548 nt of DNA from Escherichia coli (GTDB taxonomy: Bacteria; Pseudomonadota; Gammaproteobacteria; Enterobacterales; Enterobacteriaceae), in assembly GCF_003334385.1 (NCBI RefSeq), contig NZ_QOWN01000167.1; one strand, written 5' to 3'. Below the pieces are notes generated by a model. It was not told where the DNA came from and did not search any database. It was given only the letters and a program-made list of their open reading frames with translations. Each line of letters begins with the position of its first letter. Position 1 is the first letter of the stretch. Positions 1 through 548 of the stretch are shown here, piece after piece. Made by a program: the position numbers and the translations under genes.

Positions 1-60
1 TGTGCAGCCATTTTGTCCGCAGCCATCTGTCTGGCCGTATCCGGTGCGCCTGCATGGGCG
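1..60 (+). other. Signal peptide coding segment (partial; N-terminal charged region lies upstream of the window), with predicted signal peptidase I cleavage after A-W-A, so the mature protein starts at the Ser codon at 61..63
   Basis: A hydrophobic core ([14 protein letters not shown]) is followed by a helix-breaking Pro and an A-x-A motif (APAWA) at codons 46..60, then a polar mature N-terminus (SEQQ). This is the standard Sec signal-peptide architecture for outer-membrane proteins. Confidence 0.8.
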
Positions 61-548
61 TCTGAGCAGCAGGCCACACTGAGCGCAGGGTATCTTCATG
101 CCCGTACGAACGCTCCCGGCAGCGATGATCTGAACGGGATTAACGTGAAATACCGTTATGAGTTTACGGACACGCTGGGGCTGATTACGTCATTCAGTTA
201 TGCCAACGCTGAAGATGAGCAAAAAACGCATTACAGCGATACCCGCTGGCATGAAGATTCCGTGCGTAACCGCTGGTTCAGCGTGATGGCGGGGCCGTCT
301 GTGCGCGTGAATGAATGGTTCAGCGCGTATGCGATGGCGGGTATGGCTTACAGCCGTGTTTCGACTTTCTCCGGAGATTATATCCGCGTAACTGACAACA
401 AGGGGAAAACGCACGACGTGCTGACCGGAAGTGATGACGGTCGCCACAGCAACACGTCTCTGGCGTGGGGGGCTGGCGTGCAGTTTAACCCGACCGAATC
501 CGTGGCCATTGATATTGCTTATGAAGGCTCCGGCAGTGGTGACTGGCG
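1..548 (+). CDS. lom: Lom/Ail/PagC-family outer-membrane beta-barrel protein (lambda Lom-like), partial at both ends; the start codon lies just upstream of the window and the stop roughly 15-20 codons downstream
   Basis: Frame 1 is open across the entire window (about 182 codons, no stop). The translation begins with a hydrophobic signal peptide ([19 protein letters not shown]) and continues with motifs I recognise from lambda Lom and the Ail/PagC family ([68 protein letters not shown]). Aromatic and hydrophobic residues alternate in a way typical of amphipathic beta-strands. Codon usage is enterobacterial. The supplied ORF track missed it because the ORF is truncated at both window edges. 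Confidence 0.93.

Follow-up and report, generated by a model that had tools for sequence, protein, structure and literature searches.

The question raised by this locus is whether a short divergent segment in the gene of a presumed outer-membrane protein of Escherichia coli reflects a surface loop that keeps accumulating substitutions, or variation of another kind. In the window, by which we mean the whole stretch of 548 nucleotides that was analysed, the preliminary description had singled out 14 codons as a cluster of differences from the Lom protein of phage lambda and had placed them in a probable surface-exposed loop. The position and the translation of this segment were confirmed: it is read in frame 1, as had been described. 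The window and its first features are as follows.

Positions 1 to 548, plus strand: internal part (codons 5 to 186 of 199) of an Ail/Lom-family outer-membrane beta-barrel gene, assigned from the open frame, Pfam, PHROG and the nearest copy.
Positions 1 to 60, plus strand: remainder of the predicted signal peptide, codons 5 to 24 (ending in APAWA, then S25), in the 'W-type' allele of a polymorphic 5' block, assigned from the full-length copy and the model.
Positions 196 to 237, plus strand: segment flagged in the preliminary description, codons 70 to 83, from the translation of frame 1.

Frame 1 of the plus strand is open across all 548 nucleotides and gives a stop-free translation. It matched Pfam PF06316 (Ail_Lom) with E = 6e-114 and 379 bits over model positions 5-186 of 199, i.e. 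over the entire partial window, and PHROG 108 ('Lom outer membrane protein') with a value of 1e-97. Variable sites among the homologues are distributed over codon positions 1, 2 and 3 as 56/50/112, and an 85-residue antisense open reading frame is broken in 29 of 127 homologues; because of these two observations the plus frame was taken as the gene and a minus-strand gene was rejected. A search of the window against Rfam returned no RNA family above noise. The NCBIfam equivalogs Rck and OmpX were rejected as identities as well, since both scores stayed below the curated cut-offs (102.9 bits versus 258 for Rck and 90.2 bits versus 176 for OmpX). On sequence grounds we therefore assign the window to codons 5-186 of a 199-codon lom-family gene of a lambdoid prophage, belonging to an E. 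coli subfamily of 199 residues that is distinct from lambda's Lom.

The closest copy in complete E. coli genomes was found in strain SCU-104, with 99.6% DNA identity. Its two differences from the window are both synonymous, all 182 window residues are identical, and the protein is already annotated as RefSeq WP_016232698.1. This full-length copy starts with MRKV, reads APAWA/SEQQ at the predicted processing site and ends with GVGYKF, whose final aromatic residue would serve as the putative beta-signal for insertion into the outer membrane; the window is devoid of the first 4 and the last 13 codons. The signal-peptide cleavage site was read from the A-x-A motif and would lie in front of S25. 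In the structural model introduced below, a helix spans residues 2-17 and the pLDDT is low at residues 22-24. The 5' block occurs in two alleles, W23 and S23. Since the window itself carries no flanks, gene context was taken from homologous copies. In SCU-104 the gene is located between a degraded gpJ gene and a tail-fibre gene of a lambdoid prophage, adjoining pinQ and ydfK. The same slot between J and the tail fibre, on the same strand, is seen in lambda and in two outgroup loci (L164 and L166), and a long J-like open reading frame was present upstream in 151 of 155 loci. Of the 5426 complete E. coli genomes, 4692 contain a match to the window; the median is 2 places in a genome and the maximum 13. 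In a phage collection, 197 records of lambdoid and Stx phages matched.

Whether the segment is divergent depends on the reference. The near residue-for-residue match to lambda Lom that had been proposed did not hold: BLASTP against NP_040601.1 (NC_001416, 18965-19585) gave 41% identity over 174 residues with an 8-residue gap, and a global alignment gave 42% over the window. At the DNA level, lambda lom aligned by megablast only at positions 461-548, with 80.7% identity. In the global alignment, identity to lambda Lom was highest at the C-terminal end (81%) and in the transmembrane cores (58%), as compared with 25% in loop 3 (L3), 23% in beta1, 18% in extracellular loop 1 (L1) and 0 of 9 residues in the patch described below. 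The two proteins share the Pfam family, the slot between J and tail fibre, the eight-strand plan and identical C-terminal ~27 residues, whereas L1 of lambda Lom is 8 residues longer and its patch region reads AASKKSSTVMT. The structure of lambda Lom has been solved (9wso chain C). At 41-42% protein identity, lambda Lom was discarded as a reference, and the flagged segment is unexceptional in alignments against it, low identity being spread along the protein.

A comparison of the window with P0031 gives a different picture. This protein represents the subfamily's largest cluster (24,859 member sequences), which occurs in many E. coli genomes including O157:H7. P0031 belongs to the same 199-residue subfamily, has the same gene context and is 84% identical to the window overall; it differs in carrying the patch AGDKNRQLTRY (net charge +2) and an S-type 5' block (signal peptide and L1). 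Of the 31 amino-acid differences, the signal peptide and residues 25-49 account for 10 each, residues 50-72 for 1, residues 73-81 for 7 and residues 82-199 for 3. In the part of the protein that starts at residue 50, the segment 73-81 thus contributes 7 differences in 9 residues and the other 141 residues contribute 4 (hypergeometric P = 4e-8). The local cluster of substitutions thus stands against P0031 and disappears against lambda Lom. Smaller differences had also been reported near the mature N-terminus; these were corroborated by the 10 differences in residues 25-49, which include the 'SEQQATL' stretch and cover the second stretch of the preliminary description. Because the comparison with P0031 reproduces the described pattern down to 'SEQQATL', the reference behind the preliminary description was probably a common E. 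coli prophage Lom of the P0031 type and not lambda's own.

Variation within the subfamily was analysed on 155 complete 199-codon genes from viral contigs, corresponding to 127 distinct DNA sequences and 111 distinct proteins with no indels. Retrieval relied on peptide patterns, and since one of these (EDEQKTHY) recognises only one form of the patch, allele A, the allele frequencies in this sample are biased. Three regions account for the amino-acid variation among the 111 distinct proteins, namely the signal peptide and residues 25-49 and 73-81. In the latter segment 7 of 9 columns are variable, versus 22 of 166 other mature columns (odds ratio 23, P = 5e-5). The features that bear on this variation are the following.

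Positions 61 to 135, plus strand: second variable block, comprising the mature N-terminus, beta1 and extracellular loop 1, codons 25 to 49 (beginning SEQQATL), from the variable columns.
Positions 175 to 231, plus strand: strand beta3, codons 63 to 81, of which residues 73 to 81 protrude outside; a DSSP strand in the AlphaFold2 model with pLDDT 96-98.
Positions 198 to 230, plus strand: dimorphic patch of ~33 nt, in the window in the form of allele A, from the haplotype table, the swap pair, pS/pN and the outgroups.
Positions 232 to 276, plus strand: hairpin tip YSDT (codons 82 to 85) and returning beta4 arm (codons 86 to 96), nearly invariant, from variability and the strand at 86-106.
Positions 349 to 456, plus strand: beta5-beta6 extracellular hairpin, the loop 3 region, codons 121 to 156, conserved in the subfamily, from the strands at 111-135 and 141-166.

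An AlphaFold2 model was calculated from a 47-sequence alignment (mean pLDDT 92.3). Besides the signal helix, it contains strands at residues 28-40, 47-58, 63-81, 86-106, 111-135, 141-166, 172-181 and 188-198, with short turns of 4-5 residues at 59-62, 107-110 and 167-171. The best Foldseek matches were Yersinia pestis Ail (3QRA) and E. coli OmpX (1QJ9), with E values of about 1e-14 to 1e-15. Together with the Pfam match, this bears out the proposed Ail/OmpX-type barrel. In the solved structures of Ail and OmpX, both termini and the short turns face the periplasm, and beta3 and beta4 are connected by extracellular loop 2 (L2). Judged by the alternation of F69 and Y71 with S68, S70 and A72, beta3 would cross the membrane with residues 63-72, up to the aromatic Y71, and in the model residues 73-81 can then be attributed to its membrane-distal arm, the outward-running half of the extracellular hairpin of loop 2. 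The notion of a surface-exposed loop is thus retained as far as the extracellular side is concerned; the segment is, however, modelled as an extended strand arm and not as a coil loop.

The variable columns do not follow the extracellular surface in general. They number 6 of 11 in L1 and 7 of 9 in the beta3 arm, versus 0 of 4 in the tip, 0 of 11 in the beta4 arm, 2 of 36 in L3 and 0 of 7 in loop 4 (L4); mean entropy is 0.09 in the hairpin tip and 0.05 in the beta4 arm. When extracellular residues were compared as a whole with the rest of the protein, no significant enrichment of variable columns was seen (odds ratio 1.4, P = 0.42). A general diversification of the loops therefore finds no support. 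In the 25-49 block, the variable columns are 25, 27, 29, 33, 37-39, 41, 42, 45, 47 and 49. Within the arm, the odd positions 73-81 carry the radical changes (N/G, E/K, E/R, K/L and H/R), and the even positions are conserved or mildly changed (A72, A/D74, D/N76, Q78, T80 and Y82). Given strand alternation, the odd-position changes would continue the lipid-facing face of beta3 formed by F69 and Y71 and would point off the barrel axis. The hairpin register suggests that the variable residues 45, 47 and 49 of beta2 pair with 76, 74 and 72, which would make L1 and the patch one contiguous variable surface; a beta-bulge would shift both assignments.

Inspection of the haplotypes revealed that the patch occurs in two classes only, among 268 retrieved proteins as well as in the 155 coding sequences. 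Allele B reads AGDKNRQLTRY, with minor K/R75 and L/I79 variants. Allele A, the 11-residue form present in the window, has a common sub-variant A* that reads ANAKDEQKTHY. The net charge of residues 73-81 is -2 for A, 0 for A* and +2 for B. Further minor variants within the alleles are E75K, N73D/S, Q78K/R and H81R. Between A and B, 16-20 nt differ within positions 198-230, and the flanks are near-identical; in the next 22 nt downstream (positions 231-252) the window is identical to the nearest B-type copies. The change extends to silent sites, as 4 of the 5 codons with unchanged amino acid differ synonymously (S70, A72, Q78 and T80). In the cleanest swap pair, L124 (A*) and L085 (B), 19 of 597 nt differ and 16 of these are located inside positions 198-230 (Poisson scan P ~2e-11); the surrounding ~1.1 kb of this pair showed 0-4 differences per 100 nt, versus 16 in the bin of the patch. 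Between the classes, pS is 0.98 and pN 0.38 for codons 70-81, as compared with pS 0.14-0.17 and pN 0.015-0.028 in flanking codons. For codons 37-49, values of pS 0.44 and pN 0.21 were obtained between the allele classes. Outside the patch, no site is fixed between the classes.

The two outgroup genes, which have the same length and 70-73% protein identity, carry the patches AGDKDRQFIHY and AGGKDRQMTYY. Both are B-like, and allele B is therefore close to ancestral and allele A derived, with changes at G73N, D74A, K75E, R77E and L/F79K that involve multiple nucleotides in several codons. Within the patch, pN is 0.031 and pS 0.333 among A copies and pN is 0.033 and pS 0.115 among B copies. Since allele A exists in several synonymous haplotypes, it is not recent, and the conservation of the protein while the DNA drifts in each allele indicates that both are old and constrained. 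As to the origin of A, scans of one genome per species over bacteria and archaea for a donor of the patch first gave no match and then returned E. coli E69 (A*) and four chance matches in unrelated metagenome-assembled genomes. Among representatives of 50%-identity clusters, an A-like patch was seen only within the close subfamily and in none of the more distant family members. Import from an unsampled lineage and an old burst of changes in situ are indistinguishable on these data.

The patch is found on different backgrounds. In terms of copies, the combinations of 5' block and patch were S+B 41, S+A* 37, W+A 72 and W+A* 4. A W-type (N41-type) L1 accompanies the B patch in P0032, P0034 and P0114, and all four combinations of L1 and patch thus exist. 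All three forms, A, A* and B, are seen together with the dominant type of the J C-terminus (127 of 151 loci), and several patch alleles are likewise represented in every tail-fibre N-terminal cluster, with loose linkage. Coupling of the patch to the receptor-binding C-terminus of J, or to the N-terminus of the tail fibre, was therefore rejected, and the patch is not tied to the receptor-binding modules of the phage. Both alleles are frequent: in complete E. coli genomes, approximate counts obtained with haplotype-specific 45-nt megablast queries, for which a 28-nt exact word is needed, gave 6548 places for B, spread over 3188 genomes, 771 and 2006 for two A haplotypes and 1549 for A*. Both alleles can reside in one genome, e.g. 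in strains E2865 and 120899. The different 5', J and tail-fibre backgrounds and the co-occurrence in single genomes point to short-tract recombination. Judged from its discrete haplotypes, its sharp boundaries and its occurrence in all combinations with the flanks, the patch can be regarded as an allelic cassette, i.e. a mosaic segment. The length of the tract and the shuffled flanks are compatible with gene conversion between co-resident prophage copies.

We consider it probable, taking the statement as a whole, that two old patch alleles are swapped between prophages, which gives rise to a narrow divergence peak, and that the two forms are kept for recognition at the cell surface. The arm of beta3 would exist in two old alleles of ~33 nt, a near-ancestral basic B and a derived acidic A, the latter present in the window. 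Short-tract homologous recombination (gene conversion) would carry these alleles from the lom copy of one prophage to that of another, and the remaining gene would be shuffled or homogenised, so that divergence peaks sharply at the patch. The charge-reversing exchanges E/K75, E/R77, K/L79 and H/R81, together with the nearby top of L1 and beta2, would then make up a single variable surface on one flank of the protein. The two forms may be kept for a difference in what this surface binds or is recognised by, the partner being the LPS core or polyanions, a ligand of the host, a phage or an antibody. The different parts of this statement do not carry the same weight. The dimorphism, its boundaries and polarity, the purifying constraint within each allele, the reassortment and the position on a strand arm in the model are held with high confidence. 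That the forms are kept for altered binding or recognition by the variable surface is a tentative proposal, plausible by analogy and held with some doubt.

The alternative that survives best is neutral mosaicism: a short tract of a diverged lom homologue would have been copied once and would have spread by hitch-hiking and recombination, the alleles being functionally equivalent in a region that tolerates almost any polar sequence. Lambdoid prophages are well known to be mosaic, and their genes notoriously so; chimeras of 207 residues between the lambda type and the present 199-residue subfamily exist. In addition, dN>dS was not detected at the patch, either between or within alleles, the between-allele pN/pS of 0.38/0.98 being based on saturated synonymous sites that number only ~8. 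Since no test in this analysis demonstrates selection, we regard this alternative as a serious rival. It is nevertheless the less probable one, as the alleles are conserved at the protein level while synonymous diversity builds up, which is most evident for A, and as both are frequent on many backgrounds. Moreover, the very narrow divergence peak with shuffled flanks is what is expected if the patch itself is retained, and the donor lineage that such copying calls for was not found in the scans of one genome per species.

The continuous loop diversification of the preliminary description, in which receptors, immunity or phage would exert positive selection and point substitutions would accumulate in clusters, fares worse, and we consider it improbable. 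The patch is indeed the most variable part of the mature protein (7 of 9 columns), it is extracellular, its changes are radical and charge-reversing, and minor variants such as E75K, N73D/S, Q78K/R and H81R do arise within alleles. A continuously diversifying segment is, however, difficult to reconcile with two discrete, internally conserved alleles, the only classes in 268 proteins and 155 coding sequences, with a pN/pS of 0.09-0.29 within the classes and with synonymous differences in those patch codons that encode unchanged residues. The near-invariance of L3, L4, the hairpin tip and the beta4 arm argues against it as well, and a McDonald-Kreitman-type count, in which strictly fixed sites are few (3 non-synonymous and 1 synonymous), was not significant (P = 0.61).

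A single complex mutation at the origin of allele A, be it a compensated frameshift, a small inversion, templated or quasi-palindrome repair or retroelement-type mutagenesis, is suggested by the ~13 nt changes within ~21 nt and by three codons changed at all three positions, but is highly improbable, since the register scan of A against B was best in frame (19 of 38 at shift 0, versus 6-11 at other shifts and 15 for the reverse complement), no second copy of the patch with up to 3 mismatches was present in 12.5 kb of the nearest locus, the window contained no convincing inverted repeat involving the patch as a local template, and the substitutions involve all four bases and are not adenine-restricted as in the target of a diversity-generating retroelement.

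Returning to two old alleles exchanged between prophages, the relatives of the protein give some indication of what the variable surface may do. Low conservation of loops is textbook knowledge for the Ail/Lom family. Ail (3QRA/3QRC) and OmpX (1QJ8/1QJ9) share the fold with the present model (Foldseek E of 4e-15 to 5e-14, target-normalised TM-scores of 0.78-0.85), including the protruding beta3-beta4 and beta5-beta6 hairpins, and differ from it by an identity of only ~30%; compared with OmpX, the hairpin here is 8 residues longer, and two OmpX L2 gaps fall inside the patch. Heparin-binding site I of Ail is positively charged and is built by the extracellular loops EL2 and EL3 on the outer side of the barrel; a second site is provided by EL1 (PMC3417512). 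By analogy, the basic B allele resembles the heparin site of Ail; with the acidic A allele, such a site would be lost or reversed.

Lambda Lom has been linked to adhesion and, when expressed, conferred strong defence against lambda-vir and not against T7 (bioRxiv 10.1101/2025.02.28.640651); the 199-residue subfamily is not known to confer such defence. Lom orthologues are expressed in lysogens of Stx phages (PMC3342100). LomW of the Stx2 phage 933W is likewise a prophage-encoded Ail/Lom-family protein and serves as an EHEC vaccine antigen, being treated as surface-exposed and immunogenic (PMC6692519). It differs from the present protein in its 244 residues, its 43% identity over 162 residues, its origin from a short-tailed phage and its other gene context, and it was rejected as the identity of the window gene, as it forms a separate subfamily. 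Since the A/B patch is without counterpart in LomW, the vaccine data do not transfer directly.

In its most specific form, the functional proposal would turn the A/B patch and the adjacent L1 into a switch that sets the specificity of Lom's outward face, with the alleles held by frequency-dependent selection, for which we see little likelihood at present. Possible versions are allele-specific superinfection exclusion, which would extend the lambda-vir defence reported for lambda Lom and in which the phage or tail protein that is blocked would depend on the allele, an allele-dependent use of the protein as a receptor by phages or colicins, and matching to the LPS core type of the host. A simple model in which each allele matches its own phage is not favoured, because no coupling to J or tail-fibre type was seen.

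In summary, the gene itself is ordinary and already annotated, and the patch is a new example of a known feature and not a new kind of system; no prior description of the dimorphism was found in the searchable literature, the coverage of which is incomplete. Variation is genuinely concentrated in the flagged stretch, on the side of the protein exposed at the cell surface, and this stretch comes in two discrete versions instead of being a continually mutating loop. It matters for the biology of E. coli prophages insofar as Lom-family genes, on the count given above, are among the most widespread cargo that these elements carry. A narrow, charge-reversing patch with two states is found on a surface where the larger loop 3 is invariant. 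The beta3 arm and L1 are thus where specificity would have to be sought, and L3 and the beta4 arm are the candidates for a broadly reactive epitope or for a function that is conserved. The patch may finally serve as a clean example of allele exchange over a very short tract (~33 nt) between co-resident prophages.

The residue at codon 75 of the patch (the variable segment at codons 73-81) was found to correlate with the type of the polymorphic 5' block, which encodes the signal peptide and extracellular loop 1 (L1). The segments concerned here and below are the following:

Window 214-216: codon 75, at which the residue correlates with 5' block type in the sampled genes.
Window 61-231: region corresponding to the 207-aa chimeric Lom proteins P0082, P0090 and P0095.
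Window 466-546 and lambda lom locus L001 1003-1083: identical C-terminal stretch, from the protein alignment.
Window 190-447, minus strand: antisense open reading frame of 85 aa with a GTG start, overlapping the patch.
Window 84-102 and 248-266: inverted repeat of 19 nt, 89% complementary, within the coding sequence.

The W-type signal peptide and L1 were paired with E75 in 72 of the 76 sampled genes that have this block, and the S-type block was paired with K75, in either the A* or the B allele of the patch, in all cases (78/78). The association could be simple linkage across about 100 nt. Alternatively, it could reflect a charge interaction of residue 75 with the adjacent top of L1/beta2.

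In the three 207-aa homologues the N-terminal part, with its long loop 1 (...GVPALSGTGARAGDLKGIN), resembles lambda Lom. The patch, read in P0090 and P0095, is of the B type in both (AGDRNRQITRY). These proteins appear to be mosaics of lambda-type Lom and the 199-aa subfamily of the window. The window protein and lambda Lom themselves have an overall identity of 42% and share their final 27 residues; at the DNA level the alignment of the window with lambda lom is confined to this C-terminal end, with 80.7% identity. PDB 9wso gives a solved structure of lambda Lom as chain C and lists two chains with this sequence; a literature search for a paper on this entry found none, and the PDB set used for structure matching with Foldseek did not include it.

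Two other phage records are among those that matched lom. In MW057783.1, 'Campylobacter phage CJLB-4' (48,361 bp, listed host C. jejuni), the match lies at 19378-19465, nearly the same coordinate as its phage lambda counterpart at 19458-19545, and the record looks like a lambda genome carrying a Campylobacter label. In Escherichia phage D2 (OM475427.1), 40 nt of the lom 3' end (window 509-548) are 97.5% identical and fall within a feature annotated as 'host specificity protein J'; this match may be what remains of a lom gene, or the annotation may overrun.

Within the window, the antisense frame is probably not a gene: of 127 distinct homologues, 98 keep it open and in the other 29 it is broken. 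The arms of the inverted repeat are 145 nt apart; the repeat may be due to chance and points to no function.

The lom copy nearest to the window lies in a prophage of E. coli SCU-104. There the annotation splits the J gene immediately upstream of lom (locus L003, 1014-5921) into two pseudogene pieces, of which one is incomplete and the other both incomplete and frameshifted, and the adjoining lom is intact. In a decaying prophage, lom seems to persist longer than the tail genes.
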